Source: a virus
Lineage: Duplodnaviria > Heunggongvirae > Uroviricota > Caudoviricetes
Direction: 5' to 3' (one strand)
Length of the DNA stretch: 23,530 nt
Virus record (IMG/VR): IMGVR_UViG_2534681997_000007
Location: 1 to 23,530 of that record
Positions 1 through 10,505 of the stretch are shown in pieces. The notes beneath the pieces were generated by a model that worked only from the letters and a program-made list of their open reading frames with translations, did not search any database and had not been told where the DNA came from. The stretch's first letter is position 1; each line of letters opens with the position of its first letter. Position numbers and translations under genes: made by a program.

Positions 1-23
1 AACACCAGCAAACAGATAAAAAA

Positions 24-45
24 GGGCCAGCCAATTGGCCAGCCC
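24..45 (-). terminator. GC-rich imperfect palindrome (GGGCCAGCC AATT GGCCAGCCC) followed on the minus strand by TTTTTTAT; possible intrinsic terminator downstream of int, or a bidirectional terminator shared with a flanking host gene
   Basis: Palindrome and T-run read directly; stem has a 2x2 internal mismatch, so the hairpin is only moderately strong. Confidence 0.35.
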
Positions 46-171
46 TTCTTAACAGGATGTCGCTTAAGCGAAATCTTAGTTAAGACGCTCCTATTAACAC
101 CCCACAGCGAACAAACACTTACCATATAAAACAACTAGTTAAAGTAATTTTTAATGCAGTGAATTGCAGTG

Positions 172-1221
172 TTATGCAACCTCTGCCGCCACATTGTCGC
201 CAACATACAGCGATAACGGATTGAGGGTTACAGCTTGTTCAAGGTGGTCAGGAGCAAAGTGCGCATACTTCATTGTTTCTCGAATATTGGCATGTCCGAG
301 AATTTTCTGCAGCACCAGTATATTCCCTCCGTTCATCATAAAATGCGCACCAAAAGTATGACGCAAAACGTGCGTCTTCTGCCCTTCCGTCAATTCAATA
401 TTCGTTAGTTTGAGCATCTTTTTAAACTCCTGATAGCAGGGTTTAAACATTCTGCCTTGACGTACGGACAACTCGTCGTACAGCCATTTAGGAATAGGAA
501 CTGTGCGATTCTTCTTACCTTTGGTTTTGGTGAACGTTAGTTTATATGGAGAAAGTTGAGGTCGGGTCAATCTCTCCGCTTCCCCCCATCGAGCGCCGGT
601 TGCAAGGCACACCTTAACAATCATGGTGAGGTCTTCTTTGCCGTATTGCTCGCAGGCTCGAAACAGCTCCGGGAGCTGAGACAAAGTTAGCCAGGACATT
701 TCTTTCTCAGCTTCTTTGAATACTCGGATCCCATCAAGTGGATTGGGTAGGCTCCACTCCCCTAACCGGCGGAGCTCATTAAACACTGCTTCTAGGTATT
801 GTTGTTCGCGATTGACGGTTATAGGTTTGGCGATCCATTTCGAGGGGTCTTTATGATAACCATTGTCTATTTCACCACGTAATCGACGGTCACGATAATG
901 AGCCCAGTCTTTCGCGGTAAGGCGAGATGCAATCGGGTCGCCAAGTCCATTACATACGATTTGAAGCTTTGCAAACCTCGACTTACTGGCGACTAACGCT
1001 TGACCGTGCAAATTGTGCCAAAGCTGAATAATCTCGCTTAAGCGTCGGCGGTCTTCTTTCTTGCCGAGCCACGGCTTATCTTCACTCTCGCTTTTGGTAA
1101 ATGCTTCAAATGCCTCGGCCTCACCTTTGGTATTGAACTGCCGACGTATACGCCGCCCTTCTCGACCATTTGGATAGAGTTCACACAACCATTTTCCACT
1201 TTTTTGTTTACTTACAGTCAT
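172..1221 (-). CDS. int: Tyrosine recombinase, phage integrase (P2/186 family)
   Basis: 349-aa ORF; C-terminal catalytic region HVLRHTFGAHFMMNGGNILVLQKILGHANIRETMKYAHF (R...HxxR...Y signature); positioned at prophage end, transcribed toward the att side. Confidence 0.9.
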   Translation of the reverse strand: MTVSKQKSGKWLCELYPNGREGRRIRRQFNTKGEAEAFEAFTKSESEDKPWLGKKEDRRRLSEIIQLWHNLHGQALVASKSRFAKLQIVCNGLGDPIASRLTAKDWAHYRDRRLRGEIDNGYHKDPSKWIAKPITVNREQQYLEAVFNELRRLGEWSLPNPLDGIRVFKEAEKEMSWLTLSQLPELFRACEQYGKEDLTMIVKVCLATGARWGEAERLTRPQLSPYKLTFTKTKGKKNRTVPIPKWLYDELSVRQGRMFKPCYQEFKKMLKLTNIELTEGQKTHVLRHTFGAHFMMNGGNILVLQKILGHANIRETMKYAHFAPDHLEQAVTLNPLSLYVGDNVAAEVA

Positions 1222-1245
1222 TGCGATACCGAGGCTAAAAGAAAA

Positions 1246-1584
1246 TTAATTACAAAGGGCTGTAGCGGCATCAATCACCGGTGAAATTGAAATTTTAACG
1301 CCGTCATACTCAGGGTCATCCTTCCATACGTCATCTAAGTTAGACCCCTCCAGCTTTCCTGATTTAACAGCATCTACCGCCATGCCATTCAGAGGATATC
1401 TATCATCAGTTTTGATGTCATACACAAAAGCATAAGCACGGTTAACACATGATACCTTTGCCTTTTCAAAGGTTAGAGGCCACTTGTCACCATATGCAGC
1501 GCCGTCTATCTCTTTAAACTTCTCAGCGGCTATGGCTGAGGAAGAAAGTGCAATGCAGACTATCGCAAATATAAACTTTTTCAT
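1246..1584 (-). CDS. Small secreted/periplasmic protein of unknown function (moron between int and cI)
   Basis: 112 aa; N-terminal signal peptide MKKFIFAIVCIALSSSAIA-AEK; SD AAGGAG 5 nt upstream of ATG on the minus strand; AT-rich relative to the late genes. Confidence 0.6.
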   Translation of the reverse strand: MKKFIFAIVCIALSSSAIAAEKFKEIDGAAYGDKWPLTFEKAKVSCVNRAYAFVYDIKTDDRYPLNGMAVDAVKSGKLEGSNLDDVWKDDPEYDGVKISISPVIDAATALCN

Positions 1585-1593
1585 TACTGCTCC

Positions 1594-2439
1594 TTAAACA
1601 TGCTTTTCCAAAGTAAAAATAACCGCACCTGATGGTGTGATATCTGAAATATTACATTCAAACTCAGCAGACTTATTTGATAACCTGACCTTTCCGCCTG
1701 GCAACCTGATTACGTCAAAAACATCGAGTGCGCCATCAATACCAATAAGCCAGCGACCATTTCCTATCTTCGAGTTAGAACTATCAACAAGCCAAGATGT
1801 GCTCACACCATCAATAAACACTAAATCATCAGTATTTGATGGAACCATAGATATATCAGGAGTCCAGCGTCCGATATCTTTGAGTTCGCCAGCCTCGAGG
1901 CGGCACTTTCTAATCGTTAAAGCATTTGCCGGTTCACCATCATTACTGTTACGCATCTGGCCTTTTCCGGTTGATAACCATTCTAACGATACGCCAGTAT
2001 CAAGGGCGCAAGTGACAACCACGTCACCGGGGAAAAAATCGCGTCTAACCCAAGTGCTTATAGTGCCGGAAGATATACCTAATAAATCTCCAAGCTCTTT
2101 TTGCAGAGTAAAACCATACGCATCGAGAATCCGACGCAGAACCGCCCTCCCTCCATTTGCCATGATTTCATCATAGAGTTGCTTACCTTTAAGCTTAGTT
2201 TTCACCACTTCAAATCTTGCATTTGCAAGCTCACCATTAATTAGCCATCGCAGGTCAGCTCCAGTATCAAGAGCACACTCAACGAAAACGTTGCTAGGGA
2301 TTACGTTTCTAGCAAGCCAGCTACTCACGTTGTTTGCATGTATGCCAAGCCTTTCGGCTAGTTCCTTTTGCTGCTTAAAGCCGTATGCAGAAAGGACACG
2401 TTCCAATGCGGCAGACGCATTAACATCATTTTTAGACAT
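1594..2439 (-). CDS. cI: Immunity repressor, phage 186 CI-like, with two tandem copies of the CI-type HTH domain plus a C-terminal oligomerisation-type domain
   Basis: Start placed at the Met of MSKNDV (2439) rather than ORF-track 2628, which would run through the divergent promoter and the apl start; internal duplication LERVLSAYGFKQQKELAERLGI...CALDTGADLRWL / LRRILDAYGFTLQKELGDLLGI...CALDTGVSLEWL. Confidence 0.75.
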   Translation of the reverse strand: MSKNDVNASAALERVLSAYGFKQQKELAERLGIHANNVSSWLARNVIPSNVFVECALDTGADLRWLINGELANARFEVVKTKLKGKQLYDEIMANGGRAVLRRILDAYGFTLQKELGDLLGISSGTISTWVRRDFFPGDVVVTCALDTGVSLEWLSTGKGQMRNSNDGEPANALTIRKCRLEAGELKDIGRWTPDISMVPSNTDDLVFIDGVSTSWLVDSSNSKIGNGRWLIGIDGALDVFDVIRLPGGKVRLSNKSAEFECNISDITPSGAVIFTLEKHV

Positions 2440-2453
2440 ATGACACCAACAAG

Positions 2454-2475
2454 AATTTTGTTTACAACCAAAATT
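2454..2475. promoter_or_regulatory. Inverted repeat AATTTTG-N8-CAAAATT overlapping the -35 of the lytic promoter; candidate operator
   Basis: Perfect 7-bp arms at 2454-2460 and 2469-2475 read directly. Confidence 0.35.
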
Positions 2476-2489
2476 TAGCGATCTATATT
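2461..2489 (+). promoter_or_regulatory. Sigma70-type early lytic promoter (pR-like): TTTACA-17 bp-TATATT
   Basis: -35 at 2461-2466 and -10 at 2484-2489, each one mismatch from consensus, 17-bp spacer; sits in the cI/apl divergent intergenic region ~65 bp upstream of the apl ATG. Confidence 0.55.
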
Positions 2490-2552
2490 GGTGCTCACCG
2501 ACCAAGATGCACACCACTGCACTACATTTCAAACAACAGGAGATAATGCGAT

Positions 2553-2924
2553 ATGTCAGATGCAAAATCAATCTCGACGCACGACTCGCAAAACTCACAA
2601 AATCAAACTGTGCTGCTAGATCCAACACAGTTTGATGCCATCGTTACCGCCATGCTGCCAGCTCTACAGACAATGATTCGCTCCGCTATGTCAGACACGA
2701 TGACTGTGAAAGACTTCGCCGCTACTCGCGGTGTTAGCGAGCGTCTGGTCTGGCAATGGCTCGATGAGGGAGTCCTTCTCAAAGCTCCGACCAAAGACTT
2801 TTCCAACAAAGAGGAAGCTGCTAAACGAAGCCGAACCCTCGTAAATGTAAAAGCATGGCGCGATAAGCTGACTCAACAAGCGATTGATTGTCGCTACATC
2901 GACCAGCGCACCGCTCTTAACTGA
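2553..2924 (+). CDS. apl: Apl/Cox-like excisionase and transcriptional regulator (HTH)
   Basis: 123 aa; SD AGGAGA 9 nt upstream; HTH segment MTVKDFAATRGVSERLVWQWLDEGVL; first gene of the rightward operon opposite cI, as in 186. True start could be a downstream Met. Confidence 0.6.
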   Translation: MSDAKSISTHDSQNSQNQTVLLDPTQFDAIVTAMLPALQTMIRSAMSDTMTVKDFAATRGVSERLVWQWLDEGVLLKAPTKDFSNKEEAAKRSRTLVNVKAWRDKLTQQAIDCRYIDQRTALN

Positions 2925-2956
2925 ATTTGATTATGCAAGTTAGAGGGAATTTAACC

Positions 2957-3466
2957 ATGTTTGATTTTCAGGTTTCCAAACATCCCCACTATGACGAAGC
3001 ATGCCGCATTTTCGCACAGCGTCACAACATGGCGAAGCTGGCCGAGCGTGCAGGTATGAACGTTCAAACGTTACGTAACAAGCTCAACCCGGAACAGCCT
3101 CACCAGTTCACGCCGCATGAATTGTGGCTGCTGACTGACCTGACCGAAGACTCAACCCTCATTGATGGTTTTTTAGCGCAGATTCACTGCCTACCATGCG
3201 TGCCGGTTAATGAGTTGGCTAAAGACAAATTGCAGTCTTATGTCATGCGCGCAATGCGTGAACTCGGCGAACTGGCGAGCGGCGCGGTATCTGATGAACG
3301 TCTGACCACTGCCCGTAAGCACAACATGATTGAAAGCGTTAACTCCGGCATTCGCATGTTGTCATTGTCGGCTCTGGCGCTGCATGCACGTCTGCAGACT
3401 AATCCAGCTATGTCGAGCGTGATCGATACCATGAGCGGTATTGGCGCATCGTTTGGTCTGATTTGA
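2957..3466 (+). CDS. cII: CII-like lysogeny-establishment regulator (186 CII family)
   Basis: Start moved to ATG 2957 (MFDFQVSKHPHYDEAC...) with SD GAGGG 9 nt upstream; ORF-track start 2927 is TTG. Position immediately after apl. Confidence 0.7.
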   Translation: MFDFQVSKHPHYDEACRIFAQRHNMAKLAERAGMNVQTLRNKLNPEQPHQFTPHELWLLTDLTEDSTLIDGFLAQIHCLPCVPVNELAKDKLQSYVMRAMRELGELASGAVSDERLTTARKHNMIESVNSGIRMLSLSALALHARLQTNPAMSSVIDTMSGIGASFGLI

Positions 3467-3473
3467 GGTGCGT

Positions 3474-3674
3474 ATGCTGAAAAGTGAACCGTCATTCGCA
3501 TCTCTGCTCGTTAAGCAAAGCCCCGGCATGCACTACGGCCACGGCTGGATCGCAGGTAAGGACGGCAAGCGCTGGCACCCGAGCCACTCGCAGGCTGATT
3601 TACTGGCTGGCCTCTCTACTCAAAAGCGGGGGGGATCATGGCTATCGAAGCTGTTTCCGCGACTGTTCCGCTAA
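3474..3674 (+). CDS. Small early protein, possibly Fil-like (host filamentation) by position and recalled similarity
   Basis: ORF-track start 3468 is GTG; ATG at 3474 has SD GAGG 5 nt upstream; MLKSEPSFASLLVKQSPGMHYGHGWIAGKDGKRWHP... Confidence 0.45.
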   Translation: MLKSEPSFASLLVKQSPGMHYGHGWIAGKDGKRWHPSHSQADLLAGLSTQKRGGSWLSKLFPRLFR

Positions 3675-3976
3675 AAGCGGGTGAACGTCTGGCCGGTCTC
3701 AATCATGTTGCCGAATTGCGCGCGAGATATTGGGGCGATAGCTGGAAAGAGGTTGAACGTTTTGTCGATGATATGCGCGATAAACTTGACCCACAATTTG
3801 AAGAAAATAATCGGGCGCTGGCCGCTATTTTCTTTCTGGCAAAAATACCGGCGGCTCGTCATGAACTCGAATTAAGTGAGCTGACTACTGACGAGAAAAA
3901 GGCGCTTATTACAGCGATGAATCATTTTCGTGCAGTAGTGAGCTTATTTCCCAAACGGCTAACCATGCCGAATTAA
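3638..3976 (+). CDS. Hypothetical early protein
   Basis: 112 aa; ATG preceded by GGGGGGGA; overlaps the previous gene by 37 bp. Confidence 0.5.
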   Translation: MAIEAVSATVPLKAGERLAGLNHVAELRARYWGDSWKEVERFVDDMRDKLDPQFEENNRALAAIFFLAKIPAARHELELSELTTDEKKALITAMNHFRAVVSLFPKRLTMPN

Positions 3977-4043
3977 TCCAAACAGAAATTTAATGGCGTA
4001 AACCCGCCGGGCATCTTATTGCCCGAAAGCAGGAGAGTTAATT

Positions 4044-4271
4044 ATGCGTAATACCGAAATCCGTAGTTTTAACACTGATAGCGATGCGCTGGCCGTATTG
4101 CTGACCGATGCAAAAAAAGAAGAGCGTAAAGACCGCGCGCTCGCTGTTTCCATCCGCCTTGAGGCGCTGGCTATCCATATTACCAGAGAGGGTATGAGCG
4201 GCACCGAAGCTGCCGAACTGCTGCGCCGTGAAGCAACCCGCTTTGAGAATGAATCACAGGAGCTGCACTAA
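4044..4271 (+). CDS. Hypothetical early protein
   Basis: 75 aa; SD AGGAGA 8 nt upstream of ATG. Confidence 0.5.
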   Translation: MRNTEIRSFNTDSDALAVLLTDAKKEERKDRALAVSIRLEALAIHITREGMSGTEAAELLRREATRFENESQELH

Positions 4272-4492
4272 TGGCCGACGCAATGGATTTAGCACAACTG
4301 CGCGAGCAGGAAGACCGCGAACGCCACATCAGCAACGCACGCACCCGTATCGCTGCACCTTCCCGTTTTCTTTGCGAGGAATGTGACACACCAATCCCGG
4401 AAGCTCGCCGCATTGCGATTCCGGGCGTGGCTTTTTGCGTAACCTGCCAGCAAATAGCAGAGCTAAAAAACAAACACTATCGGGGGGTATAA
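4271..4492 (+). CDS. TraR/DksA-type C4 zinc-finger protein
   Basis: 73 aa; CEECDTPIPEARRIAIPGVAFCVTC (CxxC-N17-CxxC); start overlaps upstream stop (TAATG). Confidence 0.65.
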   Translation: MADAMDLAQLREQEDRERHISNARTRIAAPSRFLCEECDTPIPEARRIAIPGVAFCVTCQQIAELKNKHYRGV

Positions 4493-4493
4493 A

Positions 4494-6713
4494 TTGGCTG
4501 TTCAATTCGCTTATCCGTGGAACGTCCCACGGTCGGCAATCTCCAGCCCATACCTTACTTATGAGCAACAGCATCGTCGCGACCGTATGTTCGCGGCTTT
4601 GCTGCATGCAAAAAAGGTGCTTTCTCTCCAGCCCGACTGCGTACGGTTAGATGTTTATCGCACTGCTGCGGTGCTGGAGCAAAATCAGGGTAGTCAACGA
4701 GCCAATGCATTTTTAATCAGCTTCTGCAAAAAGGCATTGCCGCGTCTTGAACTGGTCGCAAAAAAATACGAATGCGCTGGTATCAACAGCAAGGTATCAA
4801 CCGCTGTTTTTGGAAGTCATTTTGATACTCAGCAAATGCAATATCTGTCGTCACGCATGGTTAATATGGTCGCCCAATATAACCGTCTCCCGGACATGTC
4901 GCGCGCTGATGTTGACCTGTTGGCCGCTGATATTGCTAATTTCATTCGTGGTGAACTTGCCAACATTAATGACCACGGATTCGGCGAGCTTAAAACGCTG
5001 TACACCTGGTATATTCGTGCTGGCTTTATTTCCCTCCAATTCAACGTTATCCCACCACATTGGGAGCGGGTTGAAAAAAAATATGTCGGTGCGGATGAAA
5101 TCGCACCGGCTATCGCCAAAATGTTTAACGATGGGTGGTGGCGCGGTCGTTTGCGCCGTGTTGCAGCTACGTGGCGCGAACACCTGCAAATTGCAGTCGG
5201 CAACGTCAGTAAGAAAAAAAACACTTACGCGAGTAAAAACTGCGTGACTGACTGGCGTGAACAAAAGCGCCGCACTCGTGAATTTCTCAAAGGTCTGGAT
5301 CTCGAAGACGAAGACGGCAACCGTATCAGCCTAATTGAAAAATATGATGGCTCAGTTGCTAACCCTGCGATTCGCCGCTGTGAGCTCATGACCCGCATTC
5401 GTGGGTTTGAAAACATCTGTAATGAGCTCGGTTATGTCGGTGAGTTTTACACTCTAACCGCGCCGTCAAAATATCACGCCACGACTAAAGCCGGTTACCG
5501 TAACAGCAAATGGAGCGGTGCCAGCCCGGCTGACACGCAAAACTATCTAACCGGTATCTGGGCGCGTATCCGTGCCAAACTACATCGGGAAGATGTCCGT
5601 ATTTTCGGTATTCGTGTCGCCGAGCCCCATCACGACGGCACTCCACACTGGCACATGCTGATGTTCATGCTGCCGGAAGATGTTGAATATGTTCGCTCCA
5701 TCGTCCGTAAATACGCATGGAAAGAAGACCGCCACGAACTGAAAAGCGATAAATCCAAAAAAGCACGTTTCCACGCCGAGTCCATTGACCCGGAGAAAGG
5801 CAGCGCAACCGGCTATGTTGCTAAATACATTTCAAAAAATATCGACGGTTATGCTCTCGATGGTGAAACCGATGATGAAAGCGGTGAGCTGCTGAAAGAG
5901 ACAGCCCCCGCCGTTTCAGCATGGGCTGCGCGCTGGCACATCCGTCAGTTTCAGTTTATTGGTGGTGCGCCGGTGACGGTTTACCGTGAGTTGCGTCGCC
6001 TCGCTGATACCGAAACCGCGCACGGTCTGAGCGTTGAGTTTGCCGCCGTCCATGATGCCGCCGACGCTGGTGACTGGGCTGGTTATGTTAATGCTCAAGG
6101 TGGGCCGTTTGTCCGTCGCGATGATTTACAGGTGCGCACACTGTATGAACCGCGTACCGAGCTTAATCAGTACGGTGAGGAAACGGTATGTATTAAGGGG
6201 GTCTACGATTCCTCCATAGGTGCAGGAAGCCCGATTTTAACCCGGCTCACTCAGTGGAAGATTGTTCCGAAGCGTGCTGTTGATTTGGCCGTTGACCTTC
6301 AGGACGGCAAAGCCGTCCCTCGGAGTTCTGTCAATAACTGTACGGGAAGCGAAAGCGATCCACCGGAACTCGATTTATCAAAACCCCTGAGTCGACGTGA
6401 AAGACGAGAGCTGACAAACCGACTCAGGAAGCAAAAGCCAGCAATACGGCGAAAATTCATCCACGGAACGGATGAGCAAAACGCAGCTATAGCTAAAACT
6501 ATCGACGAGATACAACTTACAACTGGCATCACAATCAGCCGGGGCGAAGCCCTGCACCTGATGGCCGGTGGTAAAAGTTGTTTTGATGACAAATGGCTAC
6601 GCGGAACATCAATGGGTGAAATATTTTCCGCTGCGCCATCACATCAGGCTAAAGCCAAGAAAATCCTTAATCGCGTTGCTGCGATGGCTGAAGCAGCAAA
6701 AACCAATACCTGA
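4494..6713 (+). CDS. A: Rolling-circle replication initiator endonuclease gpA (P2 A / 186 RepA family)
   Basis: 739-aa ORF; HUH-type motif PHHDGTPHWHMLMF and catalytic tyrosine motif TGYVAKYISKNIDGYA; ORF-track start 4494 is TTG one base after the upstream stop, first in-frame ATG is 4587, so the start is uncertain. Confidence 0.9.
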   Translation: MAVQFAYPWNVPRSAISSPYLTYEQQHRRDRMFAALLHAKKVLSLQPDCVRLDVYRTAAVLEQNQGSQRANAFLISFCKKALPRLELVAKKYECAGINSKVSTAVFGSHFDTQQMQYLSSRMVNMVAQYNRLPDMSRADVDLLAADIANFIRGELANINDHGFGELKTLYTWYIRAGFISLQFNVIPPHWERVEKKYVGADEIAPAIAKMFNDGWWRGRLRRVAATWREHLQIAVGNVSKKKNTYASKNCVTDWREQKRRTREFLKGLDLEDEDGNRISLIEKYDGSVANPAIRRCELMTRIRGFENICNELGYVGEFYTLTAPSKYHATTKAGYRNSKWSGASPADTQNYLTGIWARIRAKLHREDVRIFGIRVAEPHHDGTPHWHMLMFMLPEDVEYVRSIVRKYAWKEDRHELKSDKSKKARFHAESIDPEKGSATGYVAKYISKNIDGYALDGETDDESGELLKETAPAVSAWAARWHIRQFQFIGGAPVTVYRELRRLADTETAHGLSVEFAAVHDAADAGDWAGYVNAQGGPFVRRDDLQVRTLYEPRTELNQYGEETVCIKGVYDSSIGAGSPILTRLTQWKIVPKRAVDLAVDLQDGKAVPRSSVNNCTGSESDPPELDLSKPLSRRERRELTNRLRKQKPAIRRKFIHGTDEQNAAIAKTIDEIQLTTGITISRGEALHLMAGGKSCFDDKWLRGTSMGEIFSAAPSHQAKAKKILNRVAAMAEAAKTNT

Positions 6714-6731
6714 GTAATTCACATCCATATC

Positions 6732-6765
6732 ATGAACATACAGCAATCACCCTGTTCATTTTTTT
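6732..6765 (+). terminator. Weak terminator-like hairpin after gene A (ATGAACA-N14-TGTTCAT followed by a T7 run)
   Basis: 7-bp AT-rich stem with a large loop, then TTTTTTT; read directly. Confidence 0.3.
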
Positions 6766-6790
6766 CTTCCCATCTTTTGCCAATACGTGC

Positions 6791-6810
6791 TACTGTATAA
6801 ATATACAGTA
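6791..6810. promoter_or_regulatory. LexA box (SOS operator) TACTGTATAAATATACAGTA
   Basis: Perfect CTGT-N8-ACAG core with AT-rich spacer, one mismatch to the 20-bp consensus; 21 bp upstream of the 6831 ATG; a possible -35 TTGCCA lies at 6777-6782. Confidence 0.7.
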
Positions 6811-6830
6811 CACCCTATGGGAGGGATTTC

Positions 6831-7013
6831 ATGGTTGGCGAACATTTCAGCCGAACGCAGCAAAAGTGGGCTTGTGTGCAATTTATTGCCGAGGTATCTC
6901 TGATTGCAAACTGCAAACCAGCAGACTTAAAGCTCGCACTCACTCTCATTGCTGACCTTGCAAACAGCGAAAATAACGAAACAGAAGAAAAAATTTTTTA
7001 TAAGGTTGAATAG
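6831..7013 (+). CDS. Small ORF under the LexA box; candidate SOS-induced protein at the position where phage 186 encodes its antirepressor Tum
   Basis: 60 aa; SD GGGAGGG 7 nt upstream of ATG; no recognisable domain; much shorter than 186 Tum as I recall it. Confidence 0.4.
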   Translation: MVGEHFSRTQQKWACVQFIAEVSLIANCKPADLKLALTLIADLANSENNETEEKIFYKVE

Positions 7014-7195
7014 AAGCATGATTGAACGACTCTCTTTGCAGGTTTTTTGACAGAAGTTAATAGCTTTTTCGTTAACCAAAGAAAAGACTGATAGTACAAA
7101 CGACTAGTAGAATCATCACCATGGCAAAAAGATAGTTTATTTAACTGAAATCACTGGATTTTGATGAAGAAATAGACAGTTTTACATAATGTTTG

Positions 7196-7224
7196 TTGAT
7201 TCACCGAAGACACGAACCTATAAT
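7196..7224 (+). promoter_or_regulatory. Sigma70-type promoter TTGATT-17 bp-TATAAT upstream of the Panacea-domain gene
   Basis: Consensus -10 at 7219-7224, -35 at 7196-7201, 17-bp spacer; ~150 bp upstream of the 7373 ATG. Confidence 0.5.
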
Positions 7225-7308
7225 TCGCGCGCTACCATGCTTATCGTCATTGCTATTTACTGTTATTTGTAAGTATTGACGCTACTAGAGTAGTCAGTTA
7301 GTCTCAAA

Positions 7309-7328
7309 GTAGATGGTTATCCATCTAC
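7309..7328. promoter_or_regulatory. Perfect palindrome GTAGATGG-TTAT-CCATCTAC between promoter and Panacea gene; candidate operator or 5' UTR hairpin
   Basis: 8-bp arms with 4-bp spacer read directly. Confidence 0.4.
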
Positions 7329-7372
7329 ATAAGATGCATCGCTTTTATGCGAGGTTCATCTAAGGAGGTTTT

Positions 7373-7843
7373 ATGTACAACCCGATTTGCATCGTGAACG
7401 AATTTATCGAACGCGCTAAAAAAAACGGGGACAACCTCACCCACATGCAGGCTCAAAAGCTTCTTTATGTTGCTCATGGTTACAGCCTAGCTTTTCTTAA
7501 CGAGCCTTTGCTTGAAGAACCAGTGTGTGCGTGGAGGTACGGTCCGGTAATTCCATCGGTCTACTATGCGCTGCGCCATAATCGTTCAAACCCGATATCA
7601 GAAAAAGCATCATCAACATCGGTAGTACCGGAAAAGATAGACAGTAAAACTGCATCACTTCTGGACATGATTTACGAAACATACGGGAAGCTTTCCGGTG
7701 TTCTCTTATCTGAATTTACTCATCGCCCAGGTACTCCATGGTCACAGGCGATAGAAAAACGAGAAAACATCATCAGTGATGCCAGTATCAAAGACTATTA
7801 TTTGCGTCTAGCAAGACGAGATCCAGTTTGCAACGGATTGTAA
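7373..7843 (+). CDS. Panacea-domain (DUF4065, GepA/SocA-like) protein; candidate antitoxin or immunity component
   Basis: 156 aa; strong SD AAGGAGG 5 nt upstream; motif MQAQKLLYVAHGYSLAFLNEPLLEEPVCAWRYGPVIPSVYYAL matches the DUF4065 core as I recall it. Confidence 0.75.
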   Translation: MYNPICIVNEFIERAKKNGDNLTHMQAQKLLYVAHGYSLAFLNEPLLEEPVCAWRYGPVIPSVYYALRHNRSNPISEKASSTSVVPEKIDSKTASLLDMIYETYGKLSGVLLSEFTHRPGTPWSQAIEKRENIISDASIKDYYLRLARRDPVCNGL

Positions 7844-7860
7844 AATCAGATTATTATTGA

Positions 7861-7885
7861 CCCCGCTTAAACTGCGGGGTTTTTT
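7861..7885 (+). terminator. Intrinsic-terminator-like hairpin CCCCGC-TTAAACT-GCGGGG followed by TTTTTT, ending immediately at the start codon of the next gene
   Basis: 6-bp GC stem, 7-nt loop, 6 T; the only purine-rich SD-like element for the downstream ATG (GGGG, 7876-7879) is inside the 3' arm. Confidence 0.5.
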
Positions 7886-8482
7886 ATGTCGTCCGATAAT
7901 GAAACAATCAAAAATCTGATGAAAGAGGCTATACAGAGTCATGTTACTGATCTCTTCAAATCTCTTGATGTAGGCCCTAAACCAAAGCCGACAGAAAGAT
8001 CCTCTCCCGCCAATGATGACCCCGAAGCAAACCTTTCTGCTGAAGACAAAGCCAAAAAAGAAGAACAGGCTTTTGATTCGCCTACTGATGATGAGCACGA
8101 AGAGTTGCAAGGTCTTGCATACTGGAGTCTGGAGCACAGGCGTCGGATAGACTCTCTTACAATTCAAAAAACACAAGAAGAAATTGTACGTATCTCTTGT
8201 GAAAACGACGACCTTAGGGCTAAAACAAAGAACAACCATGCAGTTGCCCGTGGCCGTCAAATAGACAACAGACTGCGTTTACAATTAGCTGCTGCAACCT
8301 TTAAGTTCATGCAGTATTGGTGTGGTTTTGTCGCTTTCATTGTTGCTTGGTATGTATTCGCCCACTATGGCAAACCTGAAAAAGAAGTCATCATTGCACT
8401 ACTCGGAACCAGCACAATAAGTATTATTGGTTTAGTTGGTTTTGTAGTTAGCGGTTTATTTAAATCAAAAAAAGATGAATAG
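7886..8482 (+). CDS. Small membrane protein with acidic N-terminal region and two C-terminal transmembrane helices; candidate toxin/abortive-infection effector
   Basis: 198 aa; hydrophobic segments FKFMQYWCGFVAFIVAWYVFAHY and VIIALLGTSTISIIGLVGFVVSGLF; N-terminal ~130 aa rich in D/E/K; AT-rich. Confidence 0.65.
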   Translation: MSSDNETIKNLMKEAIQSHVTDLFKSLDVGPKPKPTERSSPANDDPEANLSAEDKAKKEEQAFDSPTDDEHEELQGLAYWSLEHRRRIDSLTIQKTQEEIVRISCENDDLRAKTKNNHAVARGRQIDNRLRLQLAAATFKFMQYWCGFVAFIVAWYVFAHYGKPEKEVIIALLGTSTISIIGLVGFVVSGLFKSKKDE

Positions 8483-8532
8483 CACAGCATACCTAAAACA
8501 GGCTAACCCCACTGAAGAAAAACTATTTTTTT

Positions 8533-8574
8533 GTGCCAGCAGAGTTGAACAACTCGCACCACGGGGCGTTAGTT
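8533..8574 (+). repeat. Left copy of an imperfect ~42-bp direct repeat (core GTTGAACAAC...GGCGTTAGT)
   Basis: 31 of 42 positions identical to 8938-8979, including exact 10-mer and 9-mer blocks in the same register. Confidence 0.35.
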
Positions 8575-8696
8575 CTGCCTTTCAAAGTTTCTCGATGTGT
8601 TATTGATTACACACCCGTGATGAATGGGACGTTACCTTGGCGGGTTTTATAGTGGCGCTTTGGCAGCACTAAATAAAATTCATTGAAGGCGATAAT

Positions 8697-8906
8697 ATGC
8701 ATCGACTACCGGGCGAGATTCCGCAGCACAAAACTAAAAGCATACAACTTATGGCTATCGTTCATCGTCTGCAGACGATAATGGTCAATGAGAACCTGAC
8801 TCCAGCAGAGCTAGTCGGGTGTGCAGAAATAGTCAGGGATAATTACGGCAAGCTGGATAATATCAGCAGACCGACACAATACTCACCTCCACCACGTCGG
8901 CGATAG
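8697..8906 (+). CDS. Small hypothetical ORF between the repeat copies
   Basis: 69 aa; ATG with weak SD GAAGG; no recognisable domain. Confidence 0.3.
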   Translation: MHRLPGEIPQHKTKSIQLMAIVHRLQTIMVNENLTPAELVGCAEIVRDNYGKLDNISRPTQYSPPPRRR

Positions 8907-8917
8907 CAAACGCCGTC

Positions 8918-8942
8918 AGCGCTGAAACTCGCTTTCAGTGCT
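8918..8942. other. Stem-loop AGCGCTGAAA-CTCGC-TTTCAGTGCT between convergent genes
   Basis: 10-bp stem with one G-U pair; no U-tract on either side, so not a canonical terminator. Confidence 0.35.
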
Positions 8943-8979
8943 GGCGGGGTTGAACAACGAGCTACGCGAGGCGTTAGTC
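8938..8979 (+). repeat. Right copy of the imperfect ~42-bp direct repeat; overlaps the stop codon of the HNH gene
   Basis: See left copy at 8533-8574. Confidence 0.35.
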
Positions 8980-9852
8980 GAATTTTACAGGCGACAATGG
9001 TTGTTTTAATTCTTTATCGTGGAAATGTTTGTAGCGTGGATCCTTACGAGCCTCATCGGAAAATACCGATCGATTATCTTCTATCCTAAGATGGCCCGAG
9101 TCTAATAAACGATGTAGGTCTGAAGCAAGTGCAATACCGTTTTCAACACTTGGCGCTCCGCCTGCCGCGTGGCTTAAAATGTGACACGCATCAATCGCAA
9201 AGCGAGAGCCCGTAATTGCGCAACATCCCCTCCAATTGGCTAATACGTCCTTTCTGAACCGGCCTTGAGCTTTTCGTATTTTTGTCAGCGAATAACCATC
9301 TTCAACATATGAACGCTGCTCGAATGTAGGTGATGGTTCGGTTATCTGGGGTAATTGTTGCAAACCATTCTGGTTAACCTTAAATTCTTCCCAAAGATGC
9401 TTACTAACTATTTTACCTTGGCGAGCGCACCAGTTGGTAAAATCTCTCTTTTCGTATTCATCTAAAGACGCCAGCCATTCGCGTAATTCAGAAGTGGCTA
9501 AAACATTTTGATGTAATTGACGATTTTGTGGCAGTGGTGCCAACCTCTCTTTTTTCTCGCCTCGCCGGTAAGGGGGAAGTTTCAATGTGTCCTTCATTGA
9601 AATCGTGCCAGCTGCGTTGGTTCGGACGCTGAATTGACCAGCATACTCAACTTTTTTAGCAGTTGTGGGAGTTGTTGGCTTTCTGTTATTAGCCATCCAA
9701 CGCTGTACTTGGTGCAAGACTTCACTAGCTTCCAGCCCCTTACTTATCAATTCTTTGACATATTTTTTAACCTCTTGTTTATTTGGTTGGTATTCGAATA
9801 AATACGGTGAAAGCTTTAAAATTTCTTTCATTGAAGTTTTTGTTTCAGCCAT
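8974..9852 (-). CDS. HNH-endonuclease-domain protein with ~200-aa N-terminal domain of unknown function; candidate defence nuclease
   Basis: Start at the Met of MAETKT (9852) preceded by GGGGGGA; C-terminal motif CCAITGSRFAIDACHILSHAAGGAPSVENGIALASDLHRLLDSGHLRIED, HNH_2-like as recalled; AT-rich. Confidence 0.75.
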   Translation of the reverse strand: MAETKTSMKEILKLSPYLFEYQPNKQEVKKYVKELISKGLEASEVLHQVQRWMANNRKPTTPTTAKKVEYAGQFSVRTNAAGTISMKDTLKLPPYRRGEKKERLAPLPQNRQLHQNVLATSELREWLASLDEYEKRDFTNWCARQGKIVSKHLWEEFKVNQNGLQQLPQITEPSPTFEQRSYVEDGYSLTKIRKAQGRFRKDVLANWRGCCAITGSRFAIDACHILSHAAGGAPSVENGIALASDLHRLLDSGHLRIEDNRSVFSDEARKDPRYKHFHDKELKQPLSPVKFD

Positions 9853-10028
9853 AAATCCCCCCATTTTAATTTTCTAAAAATGCACTTAATGTCATTTTTC
9901 TCAGCGTGCATTCATGGTGCATGGTTTTGCATGCGAATAATGTCTCATTTTTATGGGTGCGCCACCAGTGCTGGCGCGGATCCAGAGTAATCATGCAACT
10001 GCATTAAAACCGCCCCATAAAGCGGGCA

Positions 10029-10047
10029 GGCGTGGCGGGGAAAGCAT
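10029..10047. other. cos site (19-nt cohesive-end sequence GGCGTGGCGGGGAAAGCAT)
   Basis: Matches the phage 186 cohesive end as I recall it (P2 differs at two positions); lies between the cargo island and portal gene Q as expected for a P2-like prophage. Confidence 0.6.
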
Positions 10048-10057
10048 TGCGCGCCAG

Positions 10058-10158
10058 CGGTGGTGCGTATTATTAAAAATTATCGTCTGAGAACGTCGTG
10101 ACGGCGCTGTAGTGGCCGGGTGTGATCGTGGGCGCGTGGTGCGTCTGTGGCGTGGTGC
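10058..10158. repeat. Three copies of (C/G)GTGGTGC(G) within 100 bp on the Q-proximal side of cos; candidate terminase recognition repeats
   Basis: CGGTGGTGCGT at 10058-10068, CGTGGTGCG at 10135-10143, CGTGGTGC at 10151-10158. Confidence 0.35.
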
Positions 10159-10251
10159 TAAAGGATGGGATCAGTTGCACAATTTTACGGTTTCGCTTTG
10201 GCTAATATCCATATTGAGACTTTATGTTCCCCACAACAGTTGGAGGCTTTA

Positions 10252-10476
10252 ATGGATAACTATCATATTACAAAAGATGGCGATAAGTGGAAGTTGCAAA
10301 AAGAGGGCAATGATCGCCCTAGCAAGACCGCGACCACAAAGGCCGAGCTGATTAAAACAACATCTGAGTTTATGTCGAACAAAACAGGCTCGGTCAAAAT
10401 TCACAAGGAAGATGGGAAAATTCAGGAAGAACGCACTTATCAGAGAAAAGATGATCCTAAAAAGTCTAAAGGCTAA
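10252..10476 (+). CDS. Small basic protein, DUF2188-like, between cos and the portal gene
   Basis: Start at ATG 10252 (MDNYHITKDGDKWKLQKEGNDRPSK...) with SD GGAGG 5 nt upstream; ORF-track start 10165 lacks an SD. Confidence 0.55.
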   Translation: MDNYHITKDGDKWKLQKEGNDRPSKTATTKAELIKTTSEFMSNKTGSVKIHKEDGKIQEERTYQRKDDPKKSKG

Positions 10477-10484
10477 CATAGCAA

Positions 10485-10505
10485 AAGCCGCCAAAATGGC
10501 GGCTT
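10485..10505 (-). terminator. Hairpin AAGCCGCC-AAAAT-GGCGGCTT between convergent genes; best fits termination of the Q/P operon
   Basis: 8-bp stem; on the minus strand it is followed by TTTGCTATGTT; sits 10 bp beyond the Q stop. Confidence 0.5.

Follow-up and report, generated by a model that had tools for sequence, protein, structure and literature searches.

The left end of the 23,530-nucleotide stretch of viral DNA analysed here (the window; positions 1 to 23,530 of IMG/VR record IMGVR_UViG_2534681997_000007) carries a bacterial segment, a short sequence common to host and phage, and a phage arm that leads into a tyrosine integrase gene, with the following features:

1..77, no strand: host chromosome, assigned to the yfiB-rplS intergenic region from the match in all 5426 complete E. 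coli genomes and the gene layout of DH1
19..50, minus strand: predicted host rho-independent terminator of rplS (trmD operon), containing the palindrome 24-45, recognised from stem and T run, fold z and conservation
76..90, minus strand: 3' remnant of rplS at attL, with the stop codon TAA (76-78) preceded by the codons of the four C-terminal residues, Glu-Arg-Leu-Asn (79-90), according to the DH1 rplS CDS
78..90, no strand: att core AGTTAAGACGCTC, from comparison of attL, attR, attB and attP
91..202, no strand: phage P' arm of attL, lacking in E. coli without the prophage and aligning with the attP of SW9, Midge, RCIP0057 and PSP3
129..141, plus strand: candidate IHF-like site AAACAACTAGTTA, one mismatch to WATCAANNNNTTR, from a pattern scan
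152..170, plus strand: tandem repeat AATGCAGTG / AATTGCAGTG, seen in the sequence just past the int stop codon
172..1221, minus strand: tyrosine integrase (Int) of 349 aa, assigned to the PSP3 specificity type by Pfam, motifs and identity
184..202, plus strand: two arm-type repeats, putatively integrase-binding, TGCCGCCA (184-191) and TGTCGCCA (195-202), 11 bp apart, from motif scans

The first-pass annotation had correctly placed the 3' end of an integrase gene at 172, and the translation of this minus-strand open reading frame matches Int_N (PF24624, 1.3e-30, residues 57-169), which is the N-terminal arm-binding domain, and Phage_integrase (PF00589, 3.3e-19), with the catalytic-domain motifs TGAR, HVLRH, LGH and KYAH all present. 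Identity of Int amounts to 98.3% with SW9, 94-95% with Midge and RCIP0057 and 90.8% with PSP3, and among the phage records ten reach at least 90% while all others remain below 60%. Because Int falls into the PSP3 cluster, separated by this gap from integrases with less than 60% identity, the element in the window can be assigned to the genus Eganvirus (186-like) and, within it, to the PSP3 specificity type, the genus placement being taken from the taxonomy lines of the phage records. A further minus-strand gene, located between int and cI (window 1246-1584), encodes a DUF2511 protein (PF10709, 1.1e-18) and is kept in SW9, Midge and PSP3; its counterpart in the Midge record is named as a putative periplasmic protein, and it looks like a lysogeny-expressed accessory gene.

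Using window 1-171 as a query, all 5426 complete E. coli genomes were found to match, and 68 of them cover most of 1-171. In prophage-free E. coli among the matches listed, only window 1-90 is matched, under rplS (with one row starting at 18), and the phage-arm sequence from 91 on is absent. In the sampled rows of such genomes, window 1-90 joins the rest of rplS directly, constituting a precise empty site. In strain DH1, the yfiB stop codon, window 1-90 and the remaining part of rplS form one contiguous stretch in which rplS converges on yfiB: the yfiB CDS ends at position 1500 of this locus (L002), the window match occupies L002 1501-1590, and the rplS CDS (L002 1576-1923, minus strand) corresponds to window 76 onward. 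In this comparison, window base 1 is the first base past the yfiB stop codon, and identity with rplS, which closes the rpsP-rimM-trmD-rplS operon, holds through 90 with divergence beginning at 91. On these grounds, bases 1-77 are attributed to E. coli DNA, namely the yfiB-rplS spacer including the rplS terminator hairpin. Comparison with prophage-free strains, a check that the first-pass annotation had itself proposed, resolves the boundary, and attL does lie where it was expected, in the first 171 bp, with its core at 78-90. The accompanying statement that the core cannot be defined here is accurate for the window alone but not when prophage-free genomes, a lysogen and the attP of free phages are added, as these lead to 78-90.

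The opposite junction was read from near-identical lysogens, which are molecules other than the window's own genome. One of them, NZ_CP061758.1 (L001), shares 99.9% identity with window 1-1300 and 98.8% with 1-6791, and its prophage, measuring 30,481 bp core to core, resides between yfiB and rplS with an ogr-like late activator gene adjoining rplS. In the orientation of the window, its attR presents in succession the ogr stop codon, the ogr terminator, three TG(C/T)CGCCA repeats, the phage hairpin ggggttagcaattcgctaacccc and the core joined to rplS. Since the window is collinear with this lysogen, its own attR should be located about 7 kb past the right edge, which agrees with the earlier expectation that attR lies outside the window. 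Within the window, the 13-bp core occurs once, no second copy being present when up to 2 mismatches are allowed, and no direct repeat of any segment of 1-171 was found. Among the 5426 complete E. coli genomes, attL-type junctions are present in 68 and attR-type junctions in 68, with about 1.25% (68/5426) being lysogenic at the rplS site.

The sequence AGTTAAGACGCTC (window 78-90, 13 bp), which spans the last four rplS codons, is the only perfect identity between attL and attR in NZ_CP061758.1 and is common to attL, attR, attB and attP, with attR read from this lysogen. The attL of the window reads ...aaatcttAGTTAAGACGCTCctattaac, or in its longer form ...gcgaaatcttAGTTAAGACGCTCctattaac..., and attR of NZ_CP061758.1 reads ...phage hairpin...cgttatcAGTTAAGACGCTCtttgatacg, continuing as rplS. 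By the logic of a crossover, attL, read from left to right, has to be host-derived up to the exchange point and phage-derived beyond it, and attR the other way round. In NZ_CP061758.1, attL carries the host allele (T) at position 77 and the phage allele (C) at position 91, and attR carries the phage allele (C) at 77 and the host allele (T) at 91, which places the strand exchange within 78-90. The exchange probably took place in AGACGCTC (83-90), as suggested by E. coli SA53-3, a lysogen whose prophage has a Midge-like P arm and in which attL has A and attR has C at position 82. This left bound at 82 derives from that one lysogen and assumes that its phage had C at integration, as Midge and RCIP0057 do; in a second Midge-like lysogen, MRSN346647, A is present at position 82 in both junctions. 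The length of 83-90 fits a tyrosine-recombinase overlap region. No convincing symmetric core-type inverted-repeat pair (Int sites) centred on 83-90 was found; a GTTAA/TTAAC pair is located at 79-83 and 96-100, centred at 89.5.

Perfect identity of the attachment sites covers 13 bp in the lineage of the window and 16 bp for SW9 and PSP3. A longer core, extending roughly over window 55-90 (36 bp), would accord with position 55 being where SW9, SI22 and Midge begin to align with the window in megablast, and with the long cores of 50-110 nt of 186-type phages that target tRNA genes (PMC3448106). However, phage and host resemble each other within 55-77 without being identical, as seen when L001 attL gatgtcgcttaagcgaaatctt is set against attR gatgtagcgcgaatacgttatc, and this likeness is more readily explained if the phage has its own, diverged version of the rplS 3' untranslated region. 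Such a long core is considered very unlikely, and 55-90 was dropped as a candidate since its similarity falls short of identity, leaving the 13-bp segment 78-90 as the core.

The palindrome at 24-45, to which the first-pass annotation had drawn attention, does exist but is imperfect on the plus strand, with two C/A mismatches. On the minus strand, G-U pairing lengthens it to a 14-pair stem (50..19) that is followed by a T run, as revealed by a terminator scan. The minus-strand fold of 8-78 has a dG of -28.5 kcal/mol with z = -4.2, none of 200 shuffles being as good, and the plus-strand fold of 1-60 reaches only z = -1.6. The hairpin is kept at the same position in the Escherichia sp., Enterobacter and Citrobacter junctions. 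As window 1-90 continues into rplS in DH1, the palindrome is identified as the predicted host rplS terminator on the bacterial side of the junction, outside of the att machinery, and in the lysogen this displaced host terminator is found downstream of int. It is the sole conspicuous symmetric element within 1-171 and a similar hairpin occurs in phage attP at an equivalent distance from the core, so that the palindrome might be taken for the att core or for a site bound by the recombinase, with the boundary located there or further left. This is extremely improbable, given that the hairpin and all bases to 90 occur in every listed prophage-free E. coli and hence belong to the host side, that its GC stem and T run, with the above z value on the strand from which rplS is read, have the shape of a terminator, and that host and phage hairpins differ in sequence, which makes an exchange there impossible. 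The palindrome was ruled out as att core by its host-side location in the empty-site comparison, and its assignment as the rplS terminator is retained.

tRNA genes are the usual target of 186-type integrases (PMC3448106). The prophage might accordingly target a tRNA, tmRNA or other small RNA gene, in the way of phage 186 (tRNA-Ile) and Fels-2 (ssrA), and the 3' part of that gene would then be hidden in 1-171. To this reading we give practically no credence: ARAGORN identified 0 tRNA or tmRNA genes over the whole window, Rfam applied to 1-600 with a permissive E-value returned nothing credible beyond one meaningless viral hit with E = 0.26, and the empty site is composed of yfiB, terminator and rplS with no RNA gene annotated. 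The remark in the first-pass annotation that no tRNA-like sequence is visible was borne out, with the refinement that a protein gene, rplS, is targeted at its 3' end.

Consistent with the use of this target by a group of phages, the attP of SW9 (a Salmonella phage) and of PSP3 is located between ogr/pag and int and reads ...hairpin...cTTAGTTAAGACGCTCcta..., and the attP of Escherichia phage Midge and Klebsiella phage RCIP0057 reads TTAGTTCAGACGCTC. The C variant present in Midge and RCIP0057 is the rplS allele of two Enterobacter attL junctions. In a scan using one genome per species, the same attL junction was observed in representatives of Escherichia sp., two Enterobacter and one Citrobacter. 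Int is 94-96% identical in three of those species representatives, and the E. vonholyi locus ends too near the junction to show Int. Two of the six genome-contig hits, from a Pseudomonadota MAG and a Caulobacter MAG, were rejected as chance matches without an integrase. For phages of the PSP3 type, the rplS 3' end thus serves as attB across Escherichia, Enterobacter and Citrobacter, and Salmonella and Klebsiella phages share the attP.

The phage arm of attL is not confined to the first 171 bp but runs past this limit, with arm-type sites at 184-202 positioned within the int coding sequence. These repeats, in their context TGCCGCCAcat at 184 and TGTCGCCAaca at 195, encode the C-terminal tail of Int, VGDNVAAEVA (last ten residues). 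In the P arm at attR of L001, three further repeats are present in the same orientation, two of them 11 bp apart. The arm consensus of the 186 type is tgccGCCActt (PMC3448106), which is matched by repeats of the window type and carried exactly, as tgccgccactt, by PSP3. In SA53-3, the arm pair stays exactly 94 bp from the core despite displacement of int by two inserted genes, which argues for a cis-acting role of this DNA over conservation due to coding of the Int tail. Over the whole window, the motif TGYCGCCA is found 3 times with 2.7 expected, which is not significant, and hence the case for arm sites rests on where they lie, on their pairing and conservation and on the published consensus. 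The IHF-like site at 129-141 shows no change across the attPs of SW9, Midge, RCIP0057 and PSP3 or in the majority of attL junctions, with one substitution in the Escherichia sp. junction (L008), and may be bound by IHF. The tandem repeat at 152-170 recurs, with one or two changes, in every related attP and attL and could be a candidate site for an accessory or excision factor. As a peculiarity of SA53-3, two hypothetical genes occupy the interval between the P' arm repeats and int (L007 9595-10828), and the 3' remnant of int is a free-standing arm site.

Taken together, it is very probable that 1-171 represents the attL of a prophage of the 186-like group (Eganvirus, P2 family) and that its tyrosine integrase, of the PSP3 type, joined attP to attB at the extreme 3' end of rplS, the gene for ribosomal protein L19. 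With host DNA in 1-77, the common core in 78-90 and the phage P' arm from 91 on, integration can be envisaged as follows. The N-terminal domain of Int would bind the TG(C/T)CGCCA arm repeats, of which the P' arm has two (184-202) and the P arm, now at attR, has three. IHF would bend the arm at the candidate site 129-141, and Int would bridge to the core and perform the exchange; the system may still be active at present. Insertion severs the rplS stop codon and terminator, for which the P side of the phage carries replacements. At attR, rplS retains its last four codons followed by a phage-derived stop (TGA-TAA) and the phage hairpin terminator, the latter predicted to halt transcription of the trmD operon ahead of the prophage.

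The stop codon of rplS at attR in the window lineage changes from TAA to a phage TGA directly followed by TAA (reverse complement of ...TTATCAgttaag; L001 9086-9100, minus strand), and on the phage side of SW9 and PSP3 it stays TAA. Since rplS at attR keeps the last four codons ahead of a phage-derived stop, the L19 protein is unchanged by the insertion, with accession WP_000065253.1 being identical in three lysogens and the empty strain. The phage hairpin has an 11-pair stem followed by a U run; the 80-nt fold that contains it reaches -28.9 kcal/mol and z = -4.1. From hairpin to core, the phage segment has a layout like that of the host 3' untranslated region, comprising an A run, a hairpin, 'ggatgt.gc' and the stop codon, and it may be an old captured copy or the result of convergence. 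One could go further and regard the swap of 3' ends as regulatory rather than merely reparative, exerting a control of int that depends on the integration state and/or slightly changing L19 expression. This idea draws on the predicted ending of the int mRNA at the displaced host terminator in the lysogen, on the phage stop and terminator acquired by rplS and on the P' sites encoding the last ten residues of Int, and it could take the form of an analogue of lambda sib retroregulation or of autoregulation by Int binding within its own gene. Nothing in the data requires a regulatory role, which is considered unlikely.

Phage 21 and e14 insert into the 3' end of icd, where the phage supplies a substitute 3' end and the gene product is preserved. 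Like them, and like tRNA-targeting phages in general, the element in the window has inserted at the 3' end of a host gene of importance and restores that gene. The difference from phage 21 and e14 lies in the extent of this restoration, because here only four codons are contained in the duplicated core, and it is mainly the stop codon and terminator that are replaced and not a long coding segment. The core together with the phage-supplied stop and terminator amounts to textbook restoration of a target gene, and no new mechanism is implied.

The closest known system is Salmonella phage PSP3 (Eganvirus PsP3), with an Int 90.8% identical, an identical attP core TTAGTTAAGACGCTC, the same arm repeats and IHF-like site, and the same layout of ogr/pag, attP and int. 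It differs in having Salmonella as host instead of E. coli, in its cargo genes and in the phage-side rplS stop, which is TAA in PSP3 and SW9 and TGA-TAA in the window lineage. The PsP3-like prophage phiSPU2 of Salmonella Pullorum occupies the same chromosomal locus as the prophage in the window, since a table entry gives its insertion site as 'yfiN-rplS' (PMC6449608), and in a 2011 survey the PsP3 site was left blank. In the searchable literature, no nucleotide-level description of the PSP3 core or of an rplS attB for P2-like phages was found, the 'yfiN-rplS' entry being the only mention (PMC6449608).

With coliphage 186, the element has in common the genome organisation at the genus level, namely int, cI, cII, fil and the late activator gene beside attP, as well as the arm consensus tgccGCCActt (PMC3448106) and transcription of int toward attP. 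However, 186 uses tRNA-Ile genes (ileY/ileX), whereas the element in the window uses a protein gene with a core of 13-16 bp, in contrast to the common cores of 50-110 nt of the tRNA-integrating relatives of 186, and integrases not of the PSP3 type are less than 60% identical to that of the window. Another difference from 186 is that the window protein at the Apl position is without a family match. The 123-aa open reading frame at this Apl/Cox (excisionase and switch) position, window 2553-2924 on the plus strand, has no Pfam match, in agreement with the description of its PsP3 counterpart as a singleton of unknown type (PMC3448106).

The architecture as a whole is standard for phages of the P2/186 family, and the junction is an ordinary attL, belonging to a phage type already known and located at a reported site. 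As the locus was already known, definition of the core at the nucleotide level is a small gain in annotation and not a discovery; its value is that the left end of the prophage is fixed at 78-90 and that the palindrome receives an identity as host terminator.

Between replication gene A and the portal gene, a variable cargo region (window 6800-10500) contains several candidate defence or toxin-antitoxin genes. These include an antitoxin-like gene with a SocA/Panacea domain at 7373-7843 (PF13274, 1.3e-18), followed by an open reading frame of 198 aa without a family (7886-8482) that may be its toxin partner, an HNH_2 endonuclease of 296 aa on the opposite strand (8974-9864) and a DUF2188 / PADLOC PDC-S16 gene (10165-10476). 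In SA53-3, a SIR2-family gene is located in the cargo hotspot (L007 18247-19146), and the cargo region of NZ_CP061758.1 (L001 31305-32792) carries a group II intron reverse transcriptase/maturase gene (ltrA), where the window has different genes.
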